From assembly GCA_963665785.1 (NCBI GenBank), contig OY762456.1, positions 1,168,308-1,200,307 of the forward strand: 32,000 nt of DNA. The letters run 5' to 3'. The stretch comes from Pseudomonadales bacterium. GTDB lineage: Bacteria > Pseudomonadota > Gammaproteobacteria > Pseudomonadales > Azotimanducaceae. A program made the position numbers and the translations under genes. Positions within the stretch are counted from its first letter, which is position 1, and each line of letters opens with the position of its first letter. Below, piece after piece: positions 10,053 through 32,000 of the stretch. The notes below the pieces were generated by a model. That model saw only the letters and a list, made by a program, of their open reading frames with translations, made no database searches and had not been told where the DNA came from.

Positions 10053-10967
10053 TTAAGCGTGCTGGATGGTGTAGTTCCATCGGGGGAGGTCCTTGTCCTT
10101 GGTGACTTTCAGTTGCTTCATTTGGGCATCGGTAATTTTAATGCCCTTGGGGTAGGCCTTGCACACCTGTTCGGCACGAACGCGCAGACCGGTGGCAGTG
10201 GTGGTCGTACGGATGTAGTTGAGGATAGTTTCAAGGCTGTCGAGCGGCTGTCCAGCCCAGTGCTTGCTGATTTCGCTGAACAGTCGATGTTCAATCGGAT
10301 TCCACTTTGAAGCACCGGTCGGATAGTGAGCGACGGTAACGGTGAGGCCATGCCGATTACAGAGCTGGTGTTGTAGACCGTACTTCCAAGCGCGACAAAC
10401 GCAACCGTTGCTGCCACCACCGTCAGCGAGGATCGTCAGGTGCCTGGCATCGGCATAACGCTGACAACCCTCGGTGCGCCACCACGTCTCGACACAGTCG
10501 ACGGCGAACCCGGGGGTGTCGTGGGAGGTACCCACGAACACCGTGCCCAGGTTAGCCTGAACATCGTAGATGCCATACGGCACGGCGCGGGCATCGGCAT
10601 CAGAGCGGAAGTCGTGGTCGTTAACGCGCACCGGTTCGCGGTCCCACTTGGCGCCGGGGTTTTTGAATGCACCGACCAACTCCTTTTTCTTGGTATCGAT
10701 GCTGATGATGGGGCTGCCTTGTGTGGCACAACGTTCGCGCAATGCGGAGATACGCTCAAATTGGGCGTCGCGGTTGGGGTGTGGCGTCCCGCAACAACGC
10801 TGCTTGTGGTTGACCCGAAGCGAGAAGTCCATTTGTTTGAGTAGCCGGGCAACGCTACGAGCGCAGATCTCGATACCCAGCGCACGCAACTCAGTGGCAA
10901 TGCGCTCGGTAGTGCGCCGGGTCCACTTCAGGCCGCTGATGGGATCCCCCGCGGTCTCATGCGCCAT
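10053..10967 (-). CDS. ISAzo13-family transposase, DDE catalytic part (orfB)
   Basis: 304 aa with GDPISGLKWTRRT, AVPYGIYDV, LADGGGSNG, HYPTGASKWNPIEHRLFSEIS and PRWNYTI. These are the hallmark blocks of the DDE_Tnp_ISAZ013 (Rhodopirellula transposase) family. Confidence 0.9.
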   Translation of the reverse strand: MAHETAGDPISGLKWTRRTTERIATELRALGIEICARSVARLLKQMDFSLRVNHKQRCCGTPHPNRDAQFERISALRERCATQGSPIISIDTKKKELVGAFKNPGAKWDREPVRVNDHDFRSDADARAVPYGIYDVQANLGTVFVGTSHDTPGFAVDCVETWWRTEGCQRYADARHLTILADGGGSNGCVCRAWKYGLQHQLCNRHGLTVTVAHYPTGASKWNPIEHRLFSEISKHWAGQPLDSLETILNYIRTTTTATGLRVRAEQVCKAYPKGIKITDAQMKQLKVTKDKDLPRWNYTIQHA

Positions 10968-11752
10968 CAGCGCCTGGATTTTGGCGATGACTTCCGGCGT
11001 TTTTTTTCCACCGACGGACGTCCACCACCCGCCCGGCGCACCCGATCAAACGCCACATCCTGTGCCAACAACTCACGCCGTCCGCGGGCGATGGTGCCCC
11101 TATCGAGTCCGATGAGGTCGGCCATGCGTTGGTCGCCACCACGCCCGCTCTTCAACGACTCAAGCCCCGCATAGAGACGGCGCTGCTGCTCGTCGAGTAA
11201 GCTGACAAACAACACCAGCGCCGCGCTGAGTTCATCCGGGATCACGTCTGCACCGGGGAACGCCTTGGCGATACCCGGTTCGGCCAGCAGCGCGCGGCGA
11301 CGCCGCAACTGCTGTGTTTTACGCCCCGGCGCAGCGGCACAATACAGGAATTGCCCGGTGAGTTGCTCCCGTGTCAGGCGTACGTCAAGAACCAGTTTGC
11401 GCAACACGTCTTTGGTCCCGACATGGAGCACGTTGTCCAGTTCGTCGACAAAATAGCCAGCGTCCGACGCTTGCACCATCTCGGCGGCGGTCGTCAGCAA
11501 GGTGTCATGGCTCGAAAACCAAACATCCTGGTAGGACCACAGACCGAGCGCATCGAAGTGGGTTAACTCATCGAGTGTGTAATAGCGGCCACGATGCGAA
11601 TAACTGCTACGGTAAGCCAGCGTCCTGAGTTTACGAAACACGGTTCGTTTGGCATCGGTACCCAGCGCCGCCATCAACTCGGGCAGGGTTGCGATAGTTT
11701 GTCGACGCAACAAGGTGGTGAGGTGATCGGTAGAGAATTCGGCTGGACGCAT
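10967..11752 (-). CDS. ISAzo13-family transposase, N-terminal HTH part (orfA)
   Basis: 261 aa. The C-terminal portion (LDEQQRRLYAGLESLKSGRGGDQRMADLIGLDRGTIARGRRELL...RVRRAGGGRPSVEKK) matches the usual N-terminal DNA-binding region of ISAzo13 transposases. It ends shortly after the A8 run. Confidence 0.85.
   Translation of the reverse strand: MRPAEFSTDHLTTLLRRQTIATLPELMAALGTDAKRTVFRKLRTLAYRSSYSHRGRYYTLDELTHFDALGLWSYQDVWFSSHDTLLTTAAEMVQASDAGYFVDELDNVLHVGTKDVLRKLVLDVRLTREQLTGQFLYCAAAPGRKTQQLRRRRALLAEPGIAKAFPGADVIPDELSAALVLFVSLLDEQQRRLYAGLESLKSGRGGDQRMADLIGLDRGTIARGRRELLAQDVAFDRVRRAGGGRPSVEKKRRKSSPKSRR
11000..11007 (-). other. A8 run (T8 on the plus strand) at the orfA/orfB junction; candidate -1 frameshift or transcriptional slippage site
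   Basis: The minus strand reads GTG GAA AAA AAA CGC. Shifting -1 on A AAA AAA gives ...VEKK-TPEVIAKIQALMAHETAGDP..., joining orfA and orfB into one ~566-aa protein. Confidence 0.6.
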
Positions 11753-13949: not shown

Positions 13950-14360
13950 TTACAAAGTCATCCGAGGGATAAGGAGAATAAACCAGTGCGTCGTGAAGGT
14001 GTCATCACTCAGTGTGTGAAATTCCCACCCGTTAACTGTCGTTCCGTGCCTGATTACTGTGTTCCTGGAAGAGCTCTGTCCACAAACCATGCGGCCGTTG
14101 GTTAGTTGCACAAGTGCGGCAAACTCCTGGATGATGGCACCCGGCGTTCTCGAGAATACATTGAGAATCTCCGTGCCGATCTGAATGCCTTCGGTCTGCA
14201 TGGCCAGGAACGTCATCCACGGGATCAATGATGGGCTCCAGGATTCACCGGTAGTGACCAGCTCGCATCCGAGCGATTCTGCAATCTGTACCTTTTCCAG
14301 CGATGTTCGCCAATCGTTGCCTGCACCCACCGATACACCTTTTCTCATGATCGTACCCAT
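13950..14360 (-). pseudogene. LLM-class (luciferase-like) flavin-dependent oxidoreductase, 5' fragment only
   Basis: MRKGVSVGAGNDWRTSLEKVQIAESLGCELVTTGESWSPSLIPWMTFLAMQTEGIQIGTEILNVFSRTPGAIIQEFAALVQLTNGRMV.G matches the first ~130 aa of LLM oxidoreductases, which are ~330 aa. Similarity is lost before the ORF ends, next to repeat copy B. Confidence 0.6.
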
Positions 14361-14373
14361 GTTGTATTCAGAT

Positions 14374-14640
14374 TCAATCCGGCAAGCCCAGAACGCGTTT
14401 GGCGATAATATTGAGCTGTACTTCCGAACTGCCACAGGCAATGAGATATCTCTTGCTCAGCAACATCTTGCGCGTTGCCGTTAGTTCGTCTTCACGAAAG
14501 GTGTTACCTTGCCACCCCATATCCTGTGCGCCCATCAGCGCAACGGTGGCGTCCAGGCCAGCACTTTCCAGCCTGGTTGACAGGCATTTGAAGGTCGATG
14601 TTGCAATTGTTGCGGTGCCGCGTGTTTCTTTTTCCGCTGC
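14374..14640 (-). pseudogene. Acyl-CoA dehydrogenase, C-terminal fragment only
   Basis: The minus-strand frame ends ...ALMGAQDMGWQGNTFREDELTATRKMLLSKRYLIACGSSEVQLNIIAKRVLGLPD*. This matches the ACAD C-terminal signature (..IyGGTsEiQrNIIaerVLGLP). No N-terminal or middle domain is present. The upstream limit is approximate. Confidence 0.55.
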
Positions 14641-16061: not shown

Positions 16062-16820
16062 TTAGTTGCCCTTCAACTTTAACAGTTCGTCGTCTAGCCC
16101 ATAGCGAACCACGTCGATCCGGTCGCTGCGTTGGGATACAAAGTCACCAGTCATCGCTGGGAGATGGAATGGGAAAAATGTCGGATTGTTCAGGAGCAGC
16201 ACCAATGGTCCTTTGGCCTCCGGGGTGGCCAGGAGTGCGGACTCGAACATCAGGAGAGCCAAATTTGCATCGGCAATGCTCACCGGAGCGGCTTTCTCAT
16301 AGCAGCCTTTGGCCTCGGAATCCTTCAGTGCCCCCCAAGCAACAAAGGAACGGATAACATATCGCGCATAGCGGCTGACAGTCTGACGGTCGCCGTACTG
16401 TTCCTTCAGGCGGTAGATGATTTGCGTCTGGGTTGCCTGATCCTGCAAGGCCAACAATCGGCCAGTTTGTCGAGCCACATTGAACCAGAACGGATAGACC
16501 GCCGAGATCATCCCCCAGTGAACGGCCAGGGCCATCGAAGGGTGCTCTCGTAAAATCGCCAACGAGGCATCCCGAAATGCATTCAGCTCTGGGTCTGGAG
16601 ACACCCAGATGTTCATTAGATTGTTGACGACAAAGGTTCGCGTTTGATCGCTTCTCTCACCTTCAGCGCCATTGCCTTTTCTGTCCGTGAGGAACTCATG
16701 CAGCTCTTGGCGGATGGTTTTTGCGTCAAGTCCAGCCAACACCAGATTGGCTGCCTTTTGCATCCACTCAAAACGGATCGCCTGCTTGACGCCGATAGCT
16801 TCGTGCCTTTTGCCCATCAC
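16062..16820 (-). CDS. brxA: BrxA-like protein (assigned by position at the end of a type 3 BREX operon)
   Basis: 252-aa ORF whose ATG overlaps the pglZ stop (ATGA). It is alpha-helical and soluble-looking. It occupies the terminal slot that brxA (DUF1819) holds in type 3 BREX. The DUF1819 assignment could not be verified by eye. Confidence 0.5.
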   Translation of the reverse strand: MMGKRHEAIGVKQAIRFEWMQKAANLVLAGLDAKTIRQELHEFLTDRKGNGAEGERSDQTRTFVVNNLMNIWVSPDPELNAFRDASLAILREHPSMALAVHWGMISAVYPFWFNVARQTGRLLALQDQATQTQIIYRLKEQYGDRQTVSRYARYVIRSFVAWGALKDSEAKGCYEKAAPVSIADANLALLMFESALLATPEAKGPLVLLLNNPTFFPFHLPAMTGDFVSQRSDRIDVVRYGLDDELLKLKGN

Positions 16821-18811
16821 CGTGTCCTCCTTTCAAACTTCACAAGGGGCACGATTACTTCTTCGATGGCTATACCACCGTGACCTACGATTGCCTCTCC
16901 AGGATTTACGAATGCGTCGCGGCCACCGGCCACCAAGGGGAAATAGTCAGCTGGCAATCCGATTGGTTGCCACTCGTGGGCAAACGGGAAGGACCCAGCG
17001 ACCTGTAACCGGAGTTCCGGCGTTGGGTACACACGAACCCGCTCGCCGCGAGTTTCGGCAATCACACCTTCAGACGGGCGGCCTTTGCCTTCGCATTGGA
17101 TGTTGCCGTGATCGGCCGTCAGCCAGACCTCATAGCCGTAATCCAGCAGTTGGCCGACCATCGCGGAAAGAAATCCTGCATGGCACCACTGCTTGATCTG
17201 GTTGTGCATTCCGGCCGAGCCGAGTTGCATGCCGTGCATTATCTTGTCGACCTTGTCCACAACCAGCCCCACCACCTTGGTCTTTTCGGGATGGATTGCG
17301 GAGTCGAGTACGCTGGATGCATCGCCGTCGCCGAGGCCGCGCTGGTAAGCGACATCCAGCCGGGACAAGCCATGACCTTCCCAAAACTGCTTCCAAAGTT
17401 TCTCTTCGCTATTGGTCGAGTTGATGGATGTCGGGAAATAGAGCGGCGGCTTGCCTGAGAAGATCGATTGCCGCGATACCGAGGTCAGCGTCGGAATCCA
17501 GGCGAAGGTCGCGGATTCGCGCATGACCAGATTGGCATCCTGCTTTTGCAGAAGCTGGCGAATGGTCACCCACTGATCCAGGGCCAAGCCGTCAACCACA
17601 ATCAACGCGGCACGGCTGCTACCGGTGTCCTCAATATCCCGAGCCAGGCGGCGCGGCACATGGTGCAGCATGACCGGATTGGTCGGCGGCAAGTTGATCA
17701 GACTGGAGTAGTGGTCATTCAGCCAACCGACAAAGGTCGAGTTCAGTGCATCGCCGATTTCCTTGAGCCGGGGCTGATGCTCGGTGCTGTTGCCACAGTG
17801 AACCAGCGAAGAAATTTCGGCCCATTTCTGCGCGAATGCGATCCAATCAGAGTAACGCGCTTCCGCAGTGGGCAGCTCCTTCTCGACAAGGCCAAACAGG
17901 CGAGAGATCCGCAGCTCGTCATCGTCCACGCCGGACGTGGCGATACCGCTTCGAACCCAGGACTCGGCATCCACTTCAATGCCTTTGGCCTCGACCGGGG
18001 TGAGTTTCCCCTCAAGGAACAGGTTGTCGATGTAGACCTTGATATCCTGATGGTCGAACGACAGGCGATCAGGGCCGGGATACTTGAGGCCGTATTCCGG
18101 TGAATCTTCCAGCACCTGATATGCGCTACCCAGCCGGGAAAGAAAGAGCGGCCAGCGTTCCTGCAAAAAGGCGAAGAAGGCCTCATCGTCCGGAACGATC
18201 TCGGAAAGTGGCCAGGCTTTGAATCCATCATGGCCTTTGAGAACCTGGATGAGTCGCTCGGCCAGCATCAGCGGGATTTGGAGCTTGCCGTAGTGCAGGC
18301 GCAGCAAGGTGCGAAGCAGCTCCACCACGTTGGCGATCAGTTCCGCCGCAATGCCGAACACATGACGGAGAATGAAATCCTTGGTGGCGTTGTCGCCCAT
18401 GCGATCCGGCGGCGACTTGCGCATGGCCTCGAATAGCGCGTCCAGCAGGCTCCGGTCGAGCTTCTCGATGACCGGATAGCTCAGGTTGGGAAAAAGATCC
18501 CCCAAGTTGAATGAAAGCTTGCGGCCCGCCTTGAGCAGGTCGTAAGGCAAGGATTCCAGCTCCGCATCCTGCAAGCGGAGGACTACCACCAGATCGGGGT
18601 GCTCACCCCGGTCCCAGATCGAACGGTACTTTGACTCATAGGCATATCTGAATTCGACCGGATCACTGAACTCGATCAGGTCGAACCCGCGCCCATGGAG
18701 CTCCAATGCCAGCTTCTCCTCGGTCAGCAGACAATCCGGGTCCGCTACCAAGGTCAGCTTGCTGACGTTGGGCACGAAGTCGTTCAGGATGGCGTCTCTC
18801 CAACTATTCAT
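16817..18811 (-). CDS. pglZ: BREX alkaline-phosphatase-superfamily protein PglZ
   Basis: 664-aa ORF. The N-terminus (LTLVADPDCLLTEEKLALELHGRGFDLIEFSDPVEFRYAYE) and the C-terminal metal-binding region (ALIVVDGLALDQW ... TSVSRQSIFSG ... LTADHGN) are typical of PglZ. Confidence 0.85.
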   Translation of the reverse strand: MNSWRDAILNDFVPNVSKLTLVADPDCLLTEEKLALELHGRGFDLIEFSDPVEFRYAYESKYRSIWDRGEHPDLVVVLRLQDAELESLPYDLLKAGRKLSFNLGDLFPNLSYPVIEKLDRSLLDALFEAMRKSPPDRMGDNATKDFILRHVFGIAAELIANVVELLRTLLRLHYGKLQIPLMLAERLIQVLKGHDGFKAWPLSEIVPDDEAFFAFLQERWPLFLSRLGSAYQVLEDSPEYGLKYPGPDRLSFDHQDIKVYIDNLFLEGKLTPVEAKGIEVDAESWVRSGIATSGVDDDELRISRLFGLVEKELPTAEARYSDWIAFAQKWAEISSLVHCGNSTEHQPRLKEIGDALNSTFVGWLNDHYSSLINLPPTNPVMLHHVPRRLARDIEDTGSSRAALIVVDGLALDQWVTIRQLLQKQDANLVMRESATFAWIPTLTSVSRQSIFSGKPPLYFPTSINSTNSEEKLWKQFWEGHGLSRLDVAYQRGLGDGDASSVLDSAIHPEKTKVVGLVVDKVDKIMHGMQLGSAGMHNQIKQWCHAGFLSAMVGQLLDYGYEVWLTADHGNIQCEGKGRPSEGVIAETRGERVRVYPTPELRLQVAGSFPFAHEWQPIGLPADYFPLVAGGRDAFVNPGEAIVGHGGIAIEEVIVPLVKFERRTR

Positions 18812-19017
18812 TGAGCGCTTCTCTTGATGATCCGCAGCATCAGCAGCGACCAGATTTCCGGTACGATCTGCCGCGCTGATTGCAGCTCATGCCGCCATTT
18901 GGGTTCGTCCGCATTGCAACGGGACAGTCTGAATTGCCGCACCTCCGGCAGCCCAACCCGTTCGATGACCTTGCAGACGCTATTATGAACGGTGCTGTAT
19001 TGCCAAAGCGACTCCAT
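18808..19017 (-). CDS. Small hypothetical protein (69 aa) between the S8 peptidase gene and pglZ
   Basis: Its stop overlaps the pglZ ATG (ATGA at 18808-18811). Its start lies 13 nt after the S8 stop, with a weak AAGG upstream. No family was recognised. Confidence 0.4.
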   Translation of the reverse strand: MESLWQYSTVHNSVCKVIERVGLPEVRQFRLSRCNADEPKWRHELQSARQIVPEIWSLLMLRIIKRSAQ

Positions 19018-19030
19018 CCGCTAATTACCT

Positions 19031-21610
19031 TCAAACTTGATCTGTTGCCTGCTGAATTTGAATCGCAGGTGCAATGCGAGTTCTGATTTCGTTGTAAACA
19101 GCGATATCGAGGCCCTCGGCTACCTCCAGCGACACGGCCAATCCATACGCAATAGGGATCTGGATTTTCCCGGCGTCTTCACGGCAGTTCACTTTGATTT
19201 CGATAACTTCCCCGTCGATGAACGGCTCCGCTTTCTGGCCTTCGAACACTTCGTGTTGGACTGTTCCGCGCCGCACTGCTTGCCAATCGGCATCACTTCT
19301 AGTTGGAGCTAAGCCGTTGTTGTTCATTTCAAACCAAAGGCTTGCAGTGCGATATTTTTGAGTGCTTGCCGATATTGGGGACAACCAAGCCAAGGTAACG
19401 GTCAGGCGTCGCCACTCAGGGCGCGATCCCAGCGATGGAGGTAAAGGCAGGCTGAAAACGTGAGCTTTGCCATTGGAAAGCTGCCCGAAGCCCAAGACTG
19501 TTGCCCGCTGTTCTGTGCAATCCAGAACACGATCCACCACCGGTATGCCATAACCGATCCACCGGCTAATCAGCCCTCTGAGTTGACGGCCGTTTTCAGG
19601 GGTATGTAGCACCTCGGAAATTTGTGAACCTATATCGCCCCACGAGCAACCATGGACCAACATCGCCTTTAACAGGGGAACTTCATAATTCGATGGATCG
19701 ACTTCAGCCGCTTGCTCATTGAAGATTTGCTGCAGAGAGTCGTAACAAATACCAGCGGCTCTGCTGATCAAAGCAGTCGCATTGCTCGTTCCACAACTGT
19801 AGGATGTGGCGTTTAGTTCACCAGCTAGGCTTCCGGGTGAGGCGACTTTGTTTCCAGGGGGTGTGCGAAAAATCGCGGGCTCAATGGTTACGGGGTTGGT
19901 TGGCTGTAAAGACAACCGGTACCACTGTCTTCCGCCGTAGAAGATAACGTCAGGTTTTATTGCACGTCGATAGCCGCTGCCAAATGCTGATATGGGACTG
20001 GGTAACGGACGCCCAAATGGGTCTATCCTATTTCCCTGGTAGTCAACCTGTGCCTCATCAAGATGTACTGCCCCAACGCTGATGCCGTTAATCGTTTCGG
20101 CTGGCGAAAGAAGTTTCCTGTGCCGGGCGTCCCTGTACAGGGCTTTGATCGTTGCCGCTTCAAATTCGTCAGTCTGAAATGAGTCGAATTCTTCCCGAGA
20201 TACGCCCAAGGAAATTGTTGTTGAATGATTCCCGGCACTGACGACAAACAGCACGCCATACTTCACGCTCAACCAGTCCAGCAATCTGGCAATCGGGCTC
20301 ATAGACTGTGTGAATTGGCGGGCTCGGTCACCGATTGACAAGTTGATTACTTTAATTTGAGGAGCTGCCGGTCCTTCCCCCTGATCACCCTCGAATAATC
20401 GCTTAACCGCTCTGTGGATAAGATCGACCGCTAGGCAATTTTCAGGAATCCCCTCTGGTAGAGGTGTGTCGAGCCAGTTCAGCGGCTTCATGATAGGCCG
20501 AACGTAAACTGGCCTGGATATAGAGGGCTGTGGCTGATTCAGGTCGCCATGGACAATGAGCGATGCCATTGAGCTGCCATGGACCCGCTCCGAGGCCGCG
20601 TAATCAGCTTCCCAGTTATCTGGATCGTCAACAATCAAACGGCCAGCCAACAAGTGGTGATTGGCCAGCGGAACCCCATCAAAAAGAGCCACAACGGGAT
20701 CGCCAGTAGGCAGTGGCATCTCTTCAATCTGGGTGATTTCCACATCACCCTCTGGAGATTTGTCTCCGACCACCATTTGCCCAACAGGCATGAAGAACAT
20801 GACGTTTTCACATTTGACCAGTTCGGTTGTTGGGTTCTCCACGATAGATCGAATGGCATGAGCCGGTAGTTCGGCCAGGAGCCCATGGTAGGCGATGTCC
20901 TCAATCACTGACTGGCTTAGTATTCGGCCGCCCGCTTGTTGGACAAGGTTTGTGACGTGGCTTGCGCCCGTTGCTCGAAGCTCGTCACCCCCACGAAACC
21001 AAAGCTCAGCCTCAAATGTAATGATCCGATCACCGTCGTATTCAAGATCCTCTTGCCAGGTATCAATCACGCCGGTTTCAAGAAGTCTGTCCTGTACATC
21101 CCACCGACGGATGCTCTTCAGGTGTAGGAACACGTCGCGAAACTTTGTGAGTCCGTACTCGAATTCCATGGCGGAATTTTCTTGGTAACGTCGCCACAAC
21201 GACAGCATCTGCTCAAGCGCTTGCTGGTTGGTCATGACGAGATATAGTCGCCCACTCAGATCCTTGTCAGGTTTGGTTTCATCGTAAAATTCTTCATCCG
21301 GGGTGATTTCATCAATTTCAATTTCACCCATCCATTCTAGACCATCAATACGCTTAACCGCATTGGCAAACTTATCGATGCTGCCAATGGTCTCAAATAC
21401 TAGAACCTGCTCTGGAGTTATGCCTGAAGCATTTTGTTGTATTTCTACTCGCCTAAGCTCAAAAGCAGCCTGAAGTTGGCTAAATACAGGAGAAAGTCGA
21501 TCCCATTGTTGCTGTGGTGTTGGTCTTCTTACACGGCCTCCACCACCTCCAAGCGTTGAACGAGAAGCCGTTTCAGGCGTCGGGAAAAGAAGTAGTGGAC
21601 GTTCAGGCAT
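19031..21610 (-). CDS. S8-family (subtilisin-like) serine peptidase with a ~300-aa unassigned N-terminal region; IetS-like
   Basis: 859-aa ORF. Subtilase blocks are present in order: VALFDGVP (Asp), ERVHGSSMASLIVHGD (His), LFVVSAGNH (oxyanion Asn) and SCGTSNATALISRAAG (Ser). Its start overlaps the upstream ATPase stop by 8 nt. Confidence 0.85.
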   Translation of the reverse strand: MPERPLLLFPTPETASRSTLGGGGGRVRRPTPQQQWDRLSPVFSQLQAAFELRRVEIQQNASGITPEQVLVFETIGSIDKFANAVKRIDGLEWMGEIEIDEITPDEEFYDETKPDKDLSGRLYLVMTNQQALEQMLSLWRRYQENSAMEFEYGLTKFRDVFLHLKSIRRWDVQDRLLETGVIDTWQEDLEYDGDRIITFEAELWFRGGDELRATGASHVTNLVQQAGGRILSQSVIEDIAYHGLLAELPAHAIRSIVENPTTELVKCENVMFFMPVGQMVVGDKSPEGDVEITQIEEMPLPTGDPVVALFDGVPLANHHLLAGRLIVDDPDNWEADYAASERVHGSSMASLIVHGDLNQPQPSISRPVYVRPIMKPLNWLDTPLPEGIPENCLAVDLIHRAVKRLFEGDQGEGPAAPQIKVINLSIGDRARQFTQSMSPIARLLDWLSVKYGVLFVVSAGNHSTTISLGVSREEFDSFQTDEFEAATIKALYRDARHRKLLSPAETINGISVGAVHLDEAQVDYQGNRIDPFGRPLPSPISAFGSGYRRAIKPDVIFYGGRQWYRLSLQPTNPVTIEPAIFRTPPGNKVASPGSLAGELNATSYSCGTSNATALISRAAGICYDSLQQIFNEQAAEVDPSNYEVPLLKAMLVHGCSWGDIGSQISEVLHTPENGRQLRGLISRWIGYGIPVVDRVLDCTEQRATVLGFGQLSNGKAHVFSLPLPPSLGSRPEWRRLTVTLAWLSPISASTQKYRTASLWFEMNNNGLAPTRSDADWQAVRRGTVQHEVFEGQKAEPFIDGEVIEIKVNCREDAGKIQIPIAYGLAVSLEVAEGLDIAVYNEIRTRIAPAIQIQQATDQV

Positions 21611-22610
21611 CCTTCACCTCCGGTTCGTCCTGTTGCGCTACGGTGACGGATCTGGCGGACCAGCTCTGAAGGGTTTTGTATACGATATCCTTCATGTCGG
21701 CGTTCGGTTGTTCGAGCACATACTGGCGGAACACGGTCGTGCCGAACTCTTCGACTTCGGCGAAATTGGAGCCTTGGAGACGTTTTGCCAAAGTGCCCGC
21801 AGCATATCCCAGGGGAATATTGATCCGGCGCTCGAATTTTTCGAACCACTCTGTCAGGCGAGCGCGGGTCGGGCCGGGTAAAGTCATGCGAACCTGGAAG
21901 CGTCGCCAAACAGCACGATCCAGTAGTTCGGCATGATTGGTTGCCCCAATGACCATGACATGGCTCGGCAGGTTGTCGATCTGCATGAGCAGCGAACTCA
22001 CCACGCGCTTGATCTCACCAGTCTCGTGCAGATCACCACGCTCCTTGCCGAGGGTTTCAAACTCGTCGAAAAAGAGCACGCATTTCCGAGTGGAGGCATA
22101 CTCAAACAGTTTCTTCAGGCGGACGGCGGTCTCGCCTAGGTATGTACCGACGACGCTCTCGTAACGAACCACAAGCAGCGGGACCACCAGTGCTTCTGCA
22201 ATGGTCTCGGCCAACGACGTCTTGCCATTGCCCGGCGGTCCGATGAGGAGCAAGCGGTTGCGGGGCTCCAGGTTGTATGACCTGAGCAGGTCGGTCCGGT
22301 GCTGTTCCTGAATCAGGCTCTGGCAAATCTGCAGCACCTCATCCGGCAGGATGAGATCGGATAGCTTTCGCTGGGGCATAACCTCATGGAACAGGTTGCC
22401 CATGCGCTGATCCAGCATAGGACCACCGCCATTGGTAACGGGGCGTTCAACCGGCCCGGCGTTGAGTAACTCCTCGAGTTTCTCGGCCAGCACCTTGTGC
22501 TGCTTGGTTCGTTCTTCGGCGATGATCGCCTCGACGACCTTTCTAAAGCTGGCCTTGTCGCCCCGTATGCCGGATTGGACAAGGCGAATTAGTAAATCCG
22601 CTCTTGCCAT
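21603..22610 (-). CDS. AAA+ ATPase (classic AAA clade); IetA-like
   Basis: Walker A is LLLIGPPGNGKTS, Walker B is VLFFDEFE, and the sensor/Arg-finger region is IGATNHAELLDRAVWRRF. The start is placed at ATG 22608-22610 (MARADLLIRL...), preceded by GGGAGG and overlapping the pglXI TAA by 1 nt. The longer track ORF to 22883 overlaps pglXI out of frame. Confidence 0.85.
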   Translation of the reverse strand: MARADLLIRLVQSGIRGDKASFRKVVEAIIAEERTKQHKVLAEKLEELLNAGPVERPVTNGGGPMLDQRMGNLFHEVMPQRKLSDLILPDEVLQICQSLIQEQHRTDLLRSYNLEPRNRLLLIGPPGNGKTSLAETIAEALVVPLLVVRYESVVGTYLGETAVRLKKLFEYASTRKCVLFFDEFETLGKERGDLHETGEIKRVVSSLLMQIDNLPSHVMVIGATNHAELLDRAVWRRFQVRMTLPGPTRARLTEWFEKFERRINIPLGYAAGTLAKRLQGSNFAEVEEFGTTVFRQYVLEQPNADMKDIVYKTLQSWSARSVTVAQQDEPEVKDA

Positions 22611-25411
22611 TATTCGCCTCCCATTCTTGTTACTGCCTGATCGAACCACATGAGCAGTTTGGGGTCTTCTTCCAGGACGTTGTTGGGGATCTTGTCGGCC
22701 ACGACGACGATGACGGCGTAGTCGCGTTCCTGCCAGGCTTTCTTGAATCCGGCGCGGACAGCTTCCAGGCGGAAGACCTTGAGTTTCTTTTTGACCTCTT
22801 TGTATTCTTCGAACTCCTTGAGCAGAGCCTTCTCGCGCAGCTTCTCCAAGTCGCCCGCTTTGTTGGGATCGGGCACATACCAACGATCACGAGCTTTGGT
22901 CACCAGCGCCGGGTCATCCTTGGGTAGGTTGCGCAGCTCTTTCCAGTTGGTGGAAAGGTAGGCGTGGATCTGCTCGGGCACCGGGCCTTTGCCGTCGTAC
23001 ATAAAAAAGTTTTGTTCAAGCAATTCATCCAATTCGAGAAGCTTTTCTGTTTTCAGCCATCCTCCTATTTCTTGCATAAACTGGGGCTTGAGTTCCCCTG
23101 ATGTCTGTGTCCTCCTGACGAGCTGCTGTCGTAACCATTGGATGGCAGTATTTTCGTCAGTAATGAACAACTGTAACTGCAATACCTCGCGAACAGTCAT
23201 TCTCTTCCTGTCATATTCGGCAATTTCATCCAGAAGGAAATACATACCGTCTCGCTCGGAAAAGCGCTGACTAAGTCCATGATAGAATTCGACTGCAGAT
23301 AAAGGAACTGCAATACCCCTTTGAACGTGAAAAGCTACCATTCGGTCAAACAAAAGGAAGTTTTGTCGCTCTGTAATCGTCTCCCCCTTACCATCTTTTG
23401 TAACAAAAACTGGGAGTTGCTTGAGGTGGGCTCTAATAAATTCCCAGACGACATCTTCTGTGCCTGCCCCAAGTTCAAGCTTATTTTCCAGCCCGTCAGT
23501 TGGCTTGTAGGCTGAAATAACCAAGTCTTGATCAATTGCTCCAGCTCTATTAACCGCATTAAAAGAACGTTGTTGCTTATTGAGTACACGAACATCCGCC
23601 ACGACGAGTCCAGCGGATTCAATTGCCTGTTGAATTGCGCTCCATACTGCATTCTGGCTATTGTGAAACTCGATAGTTATCCATCGTCCAGGCTTCAAAA
23701 CACGAGAATAGGTTTTGAATGCTCTCAGCATCATATTTGAATAGAATGCTAGATCCTTCTTGTGGACATAGTTCAGGACACAATCGTTGTCGACGGACGT
23801 TCTGATCTTTAGCCAAGCCTCAACAAACATATTCAACTCGGCATATTGCAATGATTCTCCAAAAGGAGGGTCAGTGAATATGTAATCTATGGAACTATCA
23901 GGAATATCTCTAAGGTCGACAACGCTTTGGGTGGATACCCTTGCAGCCTTATGTGTTCCAATTGAAAGTGACTTTAGTTTTTTGATTTTCCTCTTAAGAA
24001 CATCAAATACATTTCGCTCAAGATGAAGAGACGGTGTAAACAATGTCCCAGAAACACCACCGCCTCCACCGAAGTAGCCCTGTTTTCGGGAAATGTAGTT
24101 GTTAATCGCAGTTAGGCAGAACCTAAAAAGAGCAGTATTTCTGTGTGAAGAGAGCTTTCCCCCCCATAAGTGACCGTATGCAAATAGAGCCCGTTTTGTG
24201 TACATGTGAACAATATGCGATAGCCCAGAGCCATTAATGAGCTTGTTGGTCTGACGCCCCGGGAAAAACTCATCTAACGGAATGCTTGGCCAGCCTCGAC
24301 CTTCAAATTTCAGATCGAATTCCTTGCGATATTCTAATGTAACCTTACACGTCTTTCTTGCCGTCCCTTGCTTTACTGTTTGCTCAACTAGAGCAAATTT
24401 TGGCGTGCTTACCATTTTGCCAAGAATAGGATCGAACTCTGTGGTGAATGGTCGATCCAGCTTTACAGCGCCGGAGGATTTCGAGGCAGCTTTTCCTACA
24501 ATCGTTCCACAATCAGGGCACGGAAATGACCTTTCCATTTTTCCATCTTTTAATGCTGCCTCTGAGAATATGAATTCATGTGAGCAGTTTGGGCAAAGAA
24601 ATACATCTGACCAAACGGCACTAAGAACAAGTCCGTTTTCCTGGGCCTGATAAAGCCATTTCAGTTCTTTCTCTGCAATCTCAACAAGCTTTAACGCCTC
24701 CCTAGCAAGAGAGGATAGATCGCAAAGGTCTGAATAGTTACTCGAAATAAATGTAGCAGCAGGTGAAAGATCGTTCAGCAGTGCTTTTCTCTCGCCTATG
24801 CATGAAAACGGTATCCATACCTTTTCCCCATTGATATCGATCTCTTCCTGTAATATTGTGCCATCAGGCTTGATCTGATACCCAAGGGAAAAAACTACAT
24901 TCTTACTTCCACACATCTGCGCCGCTACACCGGTCATGCCGGTTCCGCAGAAGCCGTCGAACACGATATCCCCCGGCTGCGTGTAATGGAGGATGTAACG
25001 CATGATGGCTTTATGCGGCACTTTGGTGTGGTAAGAGTGCGCGTTGTAAATTGGGTCGTTTTTACCCTCGCTCACATCGGTCGCAAATGGCTCACGGTGA
25101 TAGTGATAGACTTCAGGCTGTTTCGGCTTCTGCGCCTCCCATTCAGCTATGAAGTCTGCAATCCATGGGTTCGGGCAGGCGGTGTAATACGGCGGATCGC
25201 TCAGGTTCAGAATGTCCTCGTCGCTGCCGATGGGAAAGCCTTCTATCTTGCGGAACTCCGGGTCCTGCAGCTTTTTGCGCAGCTCCTCGGTAAAGTGGGC
25301 GCGGCGGGCCTCATCGTTCTCGAACGTCATGCCGAGACAAGGCACCGGGCCGGAGGGCTTCTGCGGCTCTTCAAGCAGCGAGTCGAACAAACTGGTTTCT
25401 TTCATCTTCAT
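22610..25411 (-). CDS. pglX: BREX type 3 adenine-specific DNA methyltransferase PglXI-like (N6_N4_Mtase type)
   Basis: 933-aa ORF with N-terminal LSDPPYYTACPNPW, SAM-binding motif I FDGFCGTGMTGVAA, a CxxC...CxxC zinc ribbon (CPNCSHEF...CPDCG) and catalytic motif IV FTDPPFG. Confidence 0.85.
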   Translation of the reverse strand: MKMKETSLFDSLLEEPQKPSGPVPCLGMTFENDEARRAHFTEELRKKLQDPEFRKIEGFPIGSDEDILNLSDPPYYTACPNPWIADFIAEWEAQKPKQPEVYHYHREPFATDVSEGKNDPIYNAHSYHTKVPHKAIMRYILHYTQPGDIVFDGFCGTGMTGVAAQMCGSKNVVFSLGYQIKPDGTILQEEIDINGEKVWIPFSCIGERKALLNDLSPAATFISSNYSDLCDLSSLAREALKLVEIAEKELKWLYQAQENGLVLSAVWSDVFLCPNCSHEFIFSEAALKDGKMERSFPCPDCGTIVGKAASKSSGAVKLDRPFTTEFDPILGKMVSTPKFALVEQTVKQGTARKTCKVTLEYRKEFDLKFEGRGWPSIPLDEFFPGRQTNKLINGSGLSHIVHMYTKRALFAYGHLWGGKLSSHRNTALFRFCLTAINNYISRKQGYFGGGGGVSGTLFTPSLHLERNVFDVLKRKIKKLKSLSIGTHKAARVSTQSVVDLRDIPDSSIDYIFTDPPFGESLQYAELNMFVEAWLKIRTSVDNDCVLNYVHKKDLAFYSNMMLRAFKTYSRVLKPGRWITIEFHNSQNAVWSAIQQAIESAGLVVADVRVLNKQQRSFNAVNRAGAIDQDLVISAYKPTDGLENKLELGAGTEDVVWEFIRAHLKQLPVFVTKDGKGETITERQNFLLFDRMVAFHVQRGIAVPLSAVEFYHGLSQRFSERDGMYFLLDEIAEYDRKRMTVREVLQLQLFITDENTAIQWLRQQLVRRTQTSGELKPQFMQEIGGWLKTEKLLELDELLEQNFFMYDGKGPVPEQIHAYLSTNWKELRNLPKDDPALVTKARDRWYVPDPNKAGDLEKLREKALLKEFEEYKEVKKKLKVFRLEAVRAGFKKAWQERDYAVIVVVADKIPNNVLEEDPKLLMWFDQAVTRMGGE

Positions 25412-25462: not shown

Positions 25463-29706
<4,244 letters not shown>

Positions 29707-30550: not shown

Positions 30551-32000
30551 TCACTTACGATTATAAAATTTATTAAGCACCGCTACGATCCGATCAAGGA
30601 GTGGATCAAATCCGGAAAAATCGATTTTGTGTGAGTTGGGTTTTACAACTGACTTTGCAAATACTTCTTTTCCATATTCAGTCTGCGGGTCGATCTTATT
30701 CTTGGGGTTGAATCGCTTTGTATCAAGGCGATGGTTCTTCCATTCATCCGGGAACAAGTCCTCAATGCAGCTTTCTCCATTAGGTTCGGGTGTCTTGATT
30801 AGGTAAAGATTTTTGGTTATGAAATAAAAATTTTCCGTCGAAGCCATCGTGATCGTCACATCGAAGTTTTTTTTCACCGTGCCAGCAATGGGCTTAAGGC
30901 CATCGTCATTATCGAGAAGAAGGATCACCGGATGGGCCATGGGTATGAATTTGAAAGGCTTTCTATTCTGTCTTGTCGCATCAAGATTACGCAGATAGTC
31001 CAGCGGAATTGACTTCAAGTCAACTGCACCTCCTCCAAGGCCCATAATTTTATGCGCCTGCCCGTCATAATTAAAGAACCGTATCTTAAACCTAAAACCA
31101 TTTTTTCCTGGCTCTCCTAGTTGAGGATGATAGATATCACGGCATCTAATCGCTTCACGGAGATATATCGGATCGGTCTTCCCTTCGGTGACTATGAGTG
31201 GCGCATCCAGTGCGATGCAGTACTTGTAGAACAGGAAGCGCCTGTAGAGCTTCCTGATTGCTCTTGGTTTAACACGCTGTTCCGTATCCTCCCTACAGTC
31301 CTCGCTCTGCGTGACTGCATAAATATGGCTCAGAATACCTTCGAGTGGATTGAGATTAAACATCAGGTCAGGCTGCGGATCCTCGCCGGGATTGCTAGGG
31401 GGCCTGAAGGACCGAAAATAGGTTCCCGATTGAAAGAGTGAGTCACACATGGCCCTCGCCTTGCGATAGTACTCACTCCTTATGTTGACTTTCTCATTGA
31501 CAACCAGTCCGGTGACCATCTGGCGGCTGCCCCTGCAATGCATGCGGGTCTTAGCTGGATTAACCCTGAAGCCTGCACGCTTAATTTCCTGAAGCAGACC
31601 CTCACCTACCGTCCACACAGACTGATCGTCCGAGTCTTGTATCGCTAAAGCCTCAGGAAAATCTCTCTGACTTGTAGAAAATGTAATGTCGTCAGCATAT
31701 CGCGAATACCGTACGCCATGTTTCTTCGCGAGTCTCAGCAAACGTATATCCAGAATCTGCCCGATTAACTCCGAAATAACTGGAGAGCACGGGCTTCCTT
31801 GAGGCAATGCCGCTCCGTCACAAGCAATTTGGGCAATCGTGGTGGCAACTTGTTCTTCAAGCTCGAACGCCCTGTCTTTGAGAAAGAAGCCACGCACACG
31901 GCCGAAATTAAACGAAGGAAAATAATCCTCCAGATCGAGATTTAGCACATAACGGCGGCGTTTGTGATTCTTGGCATTGGCCGCGATCGTTTGTTTCTTC
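30551..32000 (-). CDS. Retron-type reverse transcriptase fused to a C-terminal TOPRIM/OLD-like domain (5' end outside the window)
   Basis: The reading frame is open to the window edge (..KKQTIAANAKNHKRRRYVLNLDLEDYFPS). RT motifs present are LPQGSPCSP, YSRYADDITFS and RQMVTGLVVN, the last being the VTG block typical of retron RTs. The C-terminal half has TOPRIM signatures: LIVTEGKTD (Glu) and VILLLDNDDG (DxD). Confidence 0.8.
   Translation of the reverse strand, partial: KKQTIAANAKNHKRRRYVLNLDLEDYFPSFNFGRVRGFFLKDRAFELEEQVATTIAQIACDGAALPQGSPCSPVISELIGQILDIRLLRLAKKHGVRYSRYADDITFSTSQRDFPEALAIQDSDDQSVWTVGEGLLQEIKRAGFRVNPAKTRMHCRGSRQMVTGLVVNEKVNIRSEYYRKARAMCDSLFQSGTYFRSFRPPSNPGEDPQPDLMFNLNPLEGILSHIYAVTQSEDCREDTEQRVKPRAIRKLYRRFLFYKYCIALDAPLIVTEGKTDPIYLREAIRCRDIYHPQLGEPGKNGFRFKIRFFNYDGQAHKIMGLGGGAVDLKSIPLDYLRNLDATRQNRKPFKFIPMAHPVILLLDNDDGLKPIAGTVKKNFDVTITMASTENFYFITKNLYLIKTPEPNGESCIEDLFPDEWKNHRLDTKRFNPKNKIDPQTEYGKEVFAKSVVKPNSHKIDFSGFDPLLDRIVAVLNKFYNRK

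Follow-up and report, generated by a model that had tools for sequence, protein, structure and literature searches.

We analysed two adjacent genes, encoding an ATPase and a subtilase-type protease, in a 32,000-nucleotide (nt) stretch of the genome of a Pseudomonadales bacterium (contig OY762456.1), the whole of which is here called the window. Both genes are on the minus strand, in the order ATPase then protease, and they match profile models of the two components of the IetAS system, IetA and IetS (names that NCBI spells IteA and IteS). The genes and the parts of the protease are as follows:

21603..22610, minus strand: IetA-like AAA+ ATPase (ATPases associated with diverse cellular activities), 335 amino acids (aa), matched by PADLOC IetA and Pfam AAA.
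19031..21610, minus strand: IetS-like S8 subtilase, 859 aa, with D311, H344, S609 and the oxyanion residue N461.
20786..21610, minus strand: protease N-terminal region, residues 1-275, with strand-helix-strand alpha/beta units that are ferredoxin-like in an AlphaFold2 (AF2) model.
Protease residues 276-305: linker, disordered in the AF2 model and poorly conserved.
19541..20695, minus strand: S8 catalytic core, residues ~306-690, delimited by Pfam extent, Foldseek and hhalign.
19106..19513, minus strand: C-terminal beta-sandwich, residues ~700-835, all-beta in the AF2 model; the hhalign alignment reaches residue 851.

The ATPase gene starts at an ATG that follows a GGGAGG ribosome-binding site and overlaps the stop codon of the upstream pglX gene by 1 nt, and the protease start overlaps the ATPase stop by 8 nt. 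Overlapping open reading frames (ORFs) in this order are also characteristic of IetAS. The system was reportedly described by Yamamoto et al. in 2009 as a toxin-antitoxin system of Ti plasmids and is said to have been described by Gao et al. in 2020 as an anti-phage system.

An earlier note, made from the DNA letters alone, had suggested an IetAS-like architecture for the pair. Comparison with reference models bears this out and provides the homology. The PADLOC model for IetA (PDLC04232) matches the ATPase with 499.9 bits over positions 1-326 of 330, and that for IetS (PDLC04233) matches the protease with 1139.8 bits over positions 1-854 of 855. Full-length matches with such scores are not a product of chance. 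Older PADLOC models give lower scores, namely 264.6 bits (residues 4-326) and 222.3 bits for IetA, and 52-80 bits for IetS, in the protease core only. General domain models place Pfam AAA at residues 120-245 of the ATPase (104.8 bits, E 6e-30) and Pfam Peptidase_S8 at residues 306-653 of the protease (60.6 bits, E 2e-16). When a profile of 95 relatives of the protease was aligned with the canonical Ti-plasmid-type IetS using hhalign, the two were related with a probability of 99.5% (E 3e-23) over protease residues 298-851, and the catalytic D, H, N and S fell in register. The similarity to IetA and IetS is significant, so the alternative foreseen in the earlier note, a housekeeping protease/chaperone pair, fails. 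PADLOC already recognises the pair as IetAS; the kind of system is known and does not form a new category.

The relationship to tested members is nevertheless distant. NCBIfam also returns IteA and IteS as the best matches, at 220.4 bits (over almost the entire ATPase) and 76.7 bits, but its equivalog cut-offs, which mark the same function as tested proteins, are 510 bits for IteA and 900 bits for IteS, so that both proteins fall far under them. The ATPase is homologous over its full length to plasmid-borne IetA/IteA proteins (Agrobacterium Ti plasmids, Acidovorax IteA), with 31-37% identity. The protease shares 22% identity over 219 residues with a Ti-plasmid protease and 27% over 277 residues with an Acidovorax protease annotated as IteS, which covers only part of the core; its identity to a Rhizobium phaseoli plasmid protease is 32% over residues 55-853. 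On these alignments the pair is a true homologue of IetAS that represents a divergent subfamily with an N-terminal region of its own. We class it as divergent rather than as an equivalog because the PADLOC models match at full length while the NCBIfam cut-offs are missed, and because the homology of the protease is limited to the core and C-terminal domain.

The catalytic features of both proteins are intact. The earlier note had listed the Walker A and Walker B motifs and an Arg-finger region in the ATPase, all of which are present and conserved in an alignment of 73 homologues. Walker A (GPPGNGKT) occupies residues 124-131 and Walker B lies inside VLFFDEFE at residues 178-185, with D182-E183 as its acidic residues. 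The sensor-1 residue is N224, the Arg fingers are R235/R236, and the stretch that carries the second region of homology and the Arg fingers, GATNHAELLDRAVWRRF, is nearly invariant across the 73 sequences. The same alignment revealed a conserved pore-loop-1 motif, Y157-L-G-E, which the earlier note lacked. Pore loops of this aromatic-hydrophobic-Gly kind typify polypeptide-threading hexamers, that is, unfoldases and remodellers. The top PDB sequence matches of the ATPase are the D2 domains or rings of p97, Cdc48 and NVL, and by these matches and motifs the ATPase is a member of the classical AAA clade. From established knowledge of AAA+ proteins we infer that IetA would act as a hexameric polypeptide-threading unfoldase.

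In the protease, the residues that had been counted by hand as Asp, His, Ser and oxyanion Asn are indeed D311, H344, S609 and N461, and none of the four varies in alignments of 18 and of 95 sequences. The ratio of non-synonymous to synonymous substitution rates (dN/dS) is 0.03-0.10 for IetA and 0.09-0.21 for IetS, that is, 0.03-0.21 for the pair. Both genes are therefore under purifying selection. With their motifs intact, both enzymes look active, as had been supposed.

To place the pair among its relatives, we scanned genomes for relatives of the protease, of which 465 were confirmed; the best 80 loci (44-91% identity, full length) were used for comparison and are labelled L001 onwards where they need to be told apart. 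The ATPase is encoded directly upstream of the protease in 76 of these 80 loci, and the remaining four are cut by contig ends. The commonest ATPase-protease junctions among the relatives are overlaps of 8 nt or 1 nt. The family extends well beyond this sample: homologues of the protease number more than 4000, and the closest 120 clusters, 71-100% identical, are drawn from many phyla. At the 90% identity level the window IetA belongs to a cluster of 394 members and the window IetS is a singleton. One member of the IetA cluster (P0248) is 965 aa long, as against 335 aa, and may be a gene fusion or a miscalled ORF. We found no relatives of the pair or of the ATPase gene at the DNA level in 5,426 E. 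coli genomes (megablast and blastn). With the protease as query, tblastn detected nothing at E <= 1e-10 in 50,697 phage genomes. Both the ATPase, over nearly its whole length, and the protease match PHROG families of unknown function.

The N-terminal third of the protease is what sets the subfamily apart. The earlier note had described the first ~300 aa as unlike anything it recognised and had quoted two peptides from them. Both peptides are present in the translation, and these 300 aa have no match in Pfam, with no Inhibitor_I9 domain detected, and none among PDB sequences. Searches of all PDB sequences with the whole protease (phmmer and profile hmmsearch) yielded zero matches even at E <= 1. 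No canonical IetS counterpart of the N-terminal ~275-300 aa was aligned by hhalign, and BLASTP found nothing in the first 300 aa; the canonical IetS profile comprises 4 sequences only, so a very remote N-terminal relationship stays possible. Among 1.84 billion representatives, relatives of residues 1-275 occur in 1321 clusters (50% identity). Because they always form the N-terminus of proteins of ~850-880 aa, or of truncated fragments, among the best 150 matches, the N-terminal ~275 aa is, by these matches, confined to this architecture rather than a sensor module shuffled among proteins.

An AF2 model of the protease built with 95 sequences reached a predicted template modelling score of 0.83 and a mean predicted local distance difference test (pLDDT) score of 77.7. 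Searching the PDB with the whole model using Foldseek returned pro-subtilases first, led by ProN-Tk-SP (E 1.4e-15, 678 alignment columns) and followed by PCSK9 with its prodomain, Pro-Tk-subtilisin, site-1 protease and furin/Kex2 with their P-domains. The peptidase thus has a monomer-type subtilase fold and not that of a chambered peptidase. Its C-terminal domain is common to canonical IetS, and the top fold matches bear jelly-roll or P-domains in this place (Tk-SP, furin/Kex2). Subtilase zymogens such as Tk-SP, PCSK9 and furin/Kex2 are hence the best structural matches, over 600-700 columns and with the pro-forms ranked first, and the AF2 model of the window protease shares their layout, in which the S8 core immediately follows a ferredoxin-like module and is itself followed by a beta-sandwich. 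The zymogens differ in that sequence identity is 10-16%, that the window protease has extra N-terminal modules, and that it is predicted to be cytoplasmic, with no signal-peptide-like N-terminus seen by eye.

The earlier note had proposed a structure prediction of the N-terminal 300 aa followed by a Foldseek search, and this was informative in part. Ferredoxin-like alpha/beta modules are apparent, but the region modelled alone has a pLDDT of 63 and gives only weak matches to tandem ACT/ferredoxin-like structures (E 2e-4, TM score ~0.2), which would reflect a fold class, not homology. In the AF2 model of the whole protease a beta-alpha-beta-beta-alpha module spans residues 196-258, and we infer that this last N-terminal module (~196-275) may occupy a propeptide-like position. 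Residues 1-20 carry a conserved PLLxFP motif and have pLDDT values of 81/75 in the full model as against 31/37 in the N-terminal model. Because the prediction is confident about this tail only with the catalytic part included, the models suggest that it docks on the body of the protease. A regulatory or inhibitory role for the N-terminal region is plausible from these predictions.

The composition of the two genes differs. The earlier note had counted a guanine plus cytosine (GC) content of about 57% at 22141-22200 in the ATPase gene and about 43% at 21241-21300 in the protease gene, and the exact values are 56.7% and 43.3%. Over their whole lengths the ATPase gene has 57.0% GC and the protease gene 51.4%, and GC at third codon positions is 0.69 and 0.50, respectively. 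The note had taken the difference as a hint of separate histories within the pair, an interpretation that we reject because the recombination breakpoint falls inside the protease gene. Residues 1-150 of IetS are 60-80% identical to those of L001, L004 and L003, whereas the remainder is 94-100% identical, and against L022 this mosaic pattern is reversed. The rate of synonymous substitution relative to L004 is 0.93 in the first 300 codons of IetS, compared with 0.13 in the remaining codons and 0.17 in IetA. The low-GC sample at 21241-21300 corresponds to IetS residues ~104-123, inside the imported segment. The GC contrast therefore arises within the protease gene, at the border of the imported low-GC segment that forms its 5' part. 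The window IetS is an intragenic recombinant whose N-terminal third comes from another lineage and whose remaining two-thirds have the same history as the ATPase.

The pair is flanked on both sides by genes of a type 3 BREX (bacteriophage exclusion) system, all on the same strand:

29191-29706, minus strand: BrxF, PADLOC 206 bits, full length.
25463-29194, minus strand: BrxC, PADLOC 2128 bits, full length.
22610..25411, minus strand: PglXI methyltransferase, PADLOC PglX/PglXI 1259.5 bits, full length, directly upstream of the ATPase gene.
18808..19017, minus strand: brxHII remnant, a 69-codon in-frame ORF in which codons 1-19 are joined to codons ~916-967 of a ~970-codon gene.
16817..18811, minus strand: PglZ, PADLOC 1117.6 bits, full length, directly downstream of the brxHII remnant.
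16062..16820, minus strand: BrxA, PADLOC 398 bits, full length, the last gene of the operon.

By these matches, the pair sits inside a type 3 BREX operon with the order BrxF-BrxC-PglXI-(pair)-PglZ-BrxA. The canonical order for this type is brxF-brxC-pglXI-brxHII-pglZ-brxA (PMC12839542). The window thus keeps five of the six core genes, in canonical order and at full length, and departs from the canonical operon in having the IetAS-type pair inserted after pglXI and a mere remnant of brxHII. A scan across the operon of the window found no promoter or terminator signal above chance inside it.

The missing gene encodes a helicase. In BREX-3 relatives a SNF2 helicase of 929-975 aa, scoring 1648 bits against PADLOC BrxHI/BrxHII, lies between the protease gene and pglZ, and in intact relatives its gene mostly starts 7-13 nt downstream of IetS. 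At the corresponding site in the window, a 13-nt gap separates the protease gene from the remnant. A tblastn search with the BrxHII protein of L004 matches the window at 19017-18961 (89%) and 18972-18817 (81%), in one frame, and the junction between the two parts is a CATCGAA microhomology that is found at both sites in intact brxHII genes. These features identify a microhomology-mediated in-frame deletion by which BrxHII, to judge from the remnant, was lost after the pair was already in place. Because the deletion remnant persists and relatives carry the pair together with brxHII, the pair did not replace BrxHII: the change is a loss. BrxHII is present in 77% of type 3 systems according to a 2026 survey of BREX (PMC12839542). 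A second, independent disruption of brxHII beside an intact IetAS-type pair is seen in an Aminicenantes BREX-3 locus (L009:12612-15382), where the gene is split into ORFs of 361 and 572 aa.

Other genes of the operon and its surroundings show further rearrangement. PglXI of the window is only 50-57% identical to that of BREX-3 relatives (L001-L038), for which identities of BrxC, IetA and PglZ reach ~95%, and only its last ~130-160 codons are conserved at the DNA level; it looks like a swapped methylase/specificity module. BrxA is also mosaic, with 58% identity to L004 and 91-92% to L018 and L022. Directly upstream of brxF, a retron-type reverse transcriptase (RT) fused to a Toprim domain occupies 30551-32000 on the minus strand (PADLOC RT-Toprim_I-C, 551 bits). 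Its frame is open up to the window edge, which alone truncates the gene, and the msr/msd RNA would lie outside the window. About 4 kb downstream of the BREX operon is an ISAzo13-family DDE transposase (10053-11752, minus strand; Pfam DDE_Tnp_ISAZ013, E 1.6e-112), preceded by a 261-aa ORF that has no Pfam match and may be part of a split or frameshifted transposase. Between the operon and the transposase, a 163-aa ORF (13950-14441, minus strand) matches positions 10-116 of the 314-position luciferase-like monooxygenase model and is probably a truncated gene.

We extended the analysis of genomic context to 81 loci, namely the window and the best 80 of the 465 relatives, by clustering the neighbouring ORFs and annotating representatives of the clusters; the composition of this sample inflates the share of BREX-3. 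The loci fall into four groups:

BREX type 3, 15/81 loci: pair between pglXI and brxHII.
Type I restriction-modification (R-M), 20/81 loci: mostly hsdM-hsdS-(pair)-hsdR or hsdM-(pair)-hsdS-hsdR.
BREX-related or methylase-SNF2, 4/81 loci: pair inside or beside the operon.
Other, 42/81 loci: BREX and R-M genes absent; neighbours mostly varied, often housekeeping genes.

Among the 14 BREX-3 relatives, brxHII follows the pair in 11, either intact or split. It is not seen there in L001, whose contig ends just past the pair, in L067, whose upstream flank is missing, or in L073, in which the helicase is upstream. The last of these loci (L073:90-15594) comprises a 1997-aa protein with a sacsin-domain Pfam match only, a BrxHII-like helicase, the pair, PglZ and BrxA, and has no recognisable BrxC or PglX upstream. 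The BREX-related loci (n=3) encode a DUF1156 methylase and a HEPN-DUF499 ATPase, with a SNF2 helicase in two of the three, and the fourth member of that group is the methylase-SNF2 locus L023. A SNF2 gene lies directly upstream of the pair in L023, L049 and L073, giving a helicase-ATPase-subtilase (H-A-S) order, and in L027 one gene intervenes. Most of the 42 other loci look stand-alone. We dropped the idea of a cryptic R-M association of all loci after a Pfam scan of 141 neighbours at these 42 loci found no dominant family.

Comparison of closely related copies shows that the pair moves between these contexts. Two Halieaceae loci of the type I R-M group (L003 and L008) are 90.5% identical to the window at the DNA level from 22617/22610 to 19054 only, a span that contains just the two ORFs. 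Contexts interleave when loci are arranged by protease similarity: the protease of the type I R-M locus L003 is 95.8% identical to that of the BREX-3 locus L001, and that of the BREX-related locus L027 is 84.4% identical to the copy in the type I locus L024. Because DNA identity is confined to the two ORFs and the contexts interleave, the pair is a self-contained mobile two-gene cassette, one that markedly favours methylation-based systems. Where it meets neighbouring defence genes, the spacing is mostly close, from -1 to about +37 nt. IetA relatives are also carried by 610 plasmid records, 394 of them for plasmids typed as conjugative. The same intra-operon slots hold other accessory genes in some relatives, including a 23S-rRNA-IVS four-helix protein (L004:5754-6179), an SLFN/AlbA_2-Fic-like protein (L022:4298-6199), an AbiU-like protein (L025:13076-14740) and RhuM-Fic (L003:12639-13643); such slots in BREX-3 and type I R-M operons seem to accept accessory defence genes generally.

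By analogy with tested members of the family, we consider it likely that the pair is a divergent IetAS toxin-antitoxin or abortive-infection module in which the AAA+ protein IetA restrains a latent cytoplasmic subtilase, IetS. The family was first described as a plasmid-stabilising toxin-antitoxin system, in which the protease acts as toxin and is countered by the ATPase as antitoxin; ATPase mutations are not tolerated, and protease activity is required for defence (PMC13069673; PMC8562856). Abortive infection by IetAS is triggered by a single phage protein (bioRxiv 10.1101/2022.08.27.505566), and catalytic mutants of tested members lose phage protection (PMC13069673; bioRxiv 10.1101/2022.08.27.505566). 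The anti-phage mechanism is still described as unknown (PMC13069673). In our proposal, a hexamer of IetA in the uninfected cell would spend ATP to hold IetS inactive, and might do so by maintaining or resetting an autoinhibited conformation through the propeptide-like module and the N-terminal tail. A phage-encoded factor would lift this restraint either by blocking or diverting IetA or by engaging the N-terminal region of IetS. Freed IetS would then cleave host or phage proteins, and the infected cell would die or stop growing before the phage matures. The cassette would probably be an autonomous second layer of defence that is co-transcribed with BREX.

Several observations weigh against this interpretation. 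The functional statements are transferred from homologues with 22-36% identity, and both proteins score below the NCBIfam equivalog cut-offs. The N-terminal third of the protease has no detectable canonical homology, and triggering or regulation may accordingly differ from that of tested members. The propeptide-like assignment derives from a Foldseek ranking without residue-level alignment and from the weak matches of the isolated model. Finally, the location of 39 of the 81 loci inside methylation-based defence operons, with very tight junctions, exceeds what simple autonomy would lead one to expect.

This last point could also mean that the cassette guards methylation-based immunity, sensing a failure of the host BREX or R-M system and then causing proteolytic abortive infection. 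The trigger would be phage anti-restriction factors, such as DNA mimics or enzymes that deplete or degrade S-adenosylmethionine, or a stalled SNF2 or HsdR motor, and the AAA+ unfoldase would serve to reset or free a subtilase that a propeptide keeps locked. Besides the 39 embedded loci, such a role would fit the consistent position of the pair, which follows the methylase or specificity gene and precedes that for the helicase or nuclease, the tight junctions (in the window, pglXI overlaps the pair by 1 nt and the brxHII remnant lies 13 nt away) and the lack of above-chance promoter or terminator signals within the window operon. In E. coli, RM III and ietAS co-localise non-randomly (bioRxiv 10.1101/2022.08.21.504612), and one ietAS variant needs a DrmD-like SNF2 helicase (PMC13069673), the class to which BrxHII, the neighbour of IetS, also belongs. 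However, about half of the loci lie outside such operons, with mostly housekeeping neighbours, and near-identical proteins (94-96%) occur in type I R-M and BREX-3 operons, with no context-specific adaptation of an interaction surface. The pair also persists intact in the window after the loss of BrxHII, and the occupation of the same slots by unrelated genes (RhuM-Fic, SLFN/AlbA_2, AbiU and the 23S-IVS protein) suggests that they may be permissive sites. On this balance we regard a guard function as possible but rather unlikely. We think it far less probable that the pair is a selfish addiction module that stabilises its defence island or operon and contributes little to phage defence. The stabilisation of the Ti plasmid by ietAS (PMC13069673; PMC8562856), the plasmid-borne relatives, the high mobility and precise boundaries of the cassette, and its persistence in an operon that is decaying by loss of brxHII are all compatible with addiction, but tested members protect against phages while their catalytic mutants do not, and the association with defence operons is strong. 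Addiction and defence are, in addition, not mutually exclusive.

The position of the pair between pglXI and pglZ, the usual place of brxHII, raises the further idea of an integral BREX component, a split analogue of BrxL that replaces BrxHII as the restriction motor; BrxL likewise joins an AAA+ module to a protease-like domain (PMC12839542). We rejected this role, to which we assign next to no probability, on the basis of genomic context, the brxHII remnant and the occurrence of the cassette outside BREX. As described above, brxHII follows the pair in 11 of 14 BREX-3 relatives, the remnant in the window records loss and not replacement, and the same cassette is found in type I R-M operons and alone. 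IetA moreover belongs to the classical protein-remodelling AAA clade and not to the MCM clade of BrxL, and the 2026 BREX survey lists no such component (PMC12839542). A housekeeping chaperone-protease pair for protein quality control was rejected as well and seems to us scarcely credible. The ATPase does have a generic similarity to FtsH, proteasomal ATPases and Cdc48, but the IetA and IetS models come out ahead by hundreds of bits, subtilases are not of the chambered type, and the pair has a patchy, horizontally transferred distribution across many phyla (70-92% identity) and sits in a defence island, inside BREX and near a retron-type RT.

The divergent IetAS module that we favour can be compared with several better known systems. 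With IetAS itself it shares gene order, full-length homology of the ATPase, the S8 core and C-terminal domain, and intact Walker motifs and catalytic triad; it differs in the low identity of the protease, in its non-alignable N-terminal region and in being often embedded in BREX-3, type I R-M and BREX-related operons. The ietHAS system (Liu-DS4) consists of ietAS and an essential DrmD-like SNF2 helicase (PMC13069673). The pair resembles it in intact BREX-3 relatives, where it adjoins the DrmD-like SNF2 helicase BrxHII, but in the window the helicase is deleted with the pair intact, and many loci have no helicase. Among AAA+ protease machines (ClpXP, Lon, FtsH and PAN-proteasome), the likeness lies in the classical AAA clade and YLGE pore loop of the ATPase, and the difference in the peptidase, which has a monomer-type subtilase fold and is not chambered. 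The anticodon nuclease PrrC, which the cassette would resemble if it had a guard function, is embedded in the EcoprrI type I R-M operon. In 20 relatives the pair is similarly placed as an effector between the modification/specificity and restriction genes of a type I R-M operon. Unlike PrrC it is an ATPase-controlled protease and not an anticodon nuclease, the same cassette also lives alone, and there is no sign that it is masked by the R-M complex.

In the literature searched, which included the 2026 BREX survey, we found no experimental test of a member of this subfamily; the survey mentions neither subtilases nor IetAS (PMC12839542). Also undescribed in the searched literature are the recurrent in-register embedding in BREX-3, type I R-M and BREX-related operons, the precise boundaries of the cassette, the subfamily N-terminal region with its pro-subtilase-like layout and the natural brxHII deletion allele.

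In summary, the classification of the pair as IetAS is unchanged, and the pair offers a good experimental entry to the mechanism of this family. The subfamily is large (>1300 clusters at 50% identity) and its ATPase extremely conserved, which provides a handle on how IetAS works. An unfoldase pore loop together with a zymogen-like protease suggests a testable model in which the unfoldase would control the latency of the protease. The window itself is a natural helicase-less type 3 BREX system whose other genes are full length, and the recurrent embedding of the pair in methylation-based defence operons can serve as a natural experiment to tell physical coupling of layered defences from mere co-transcription.

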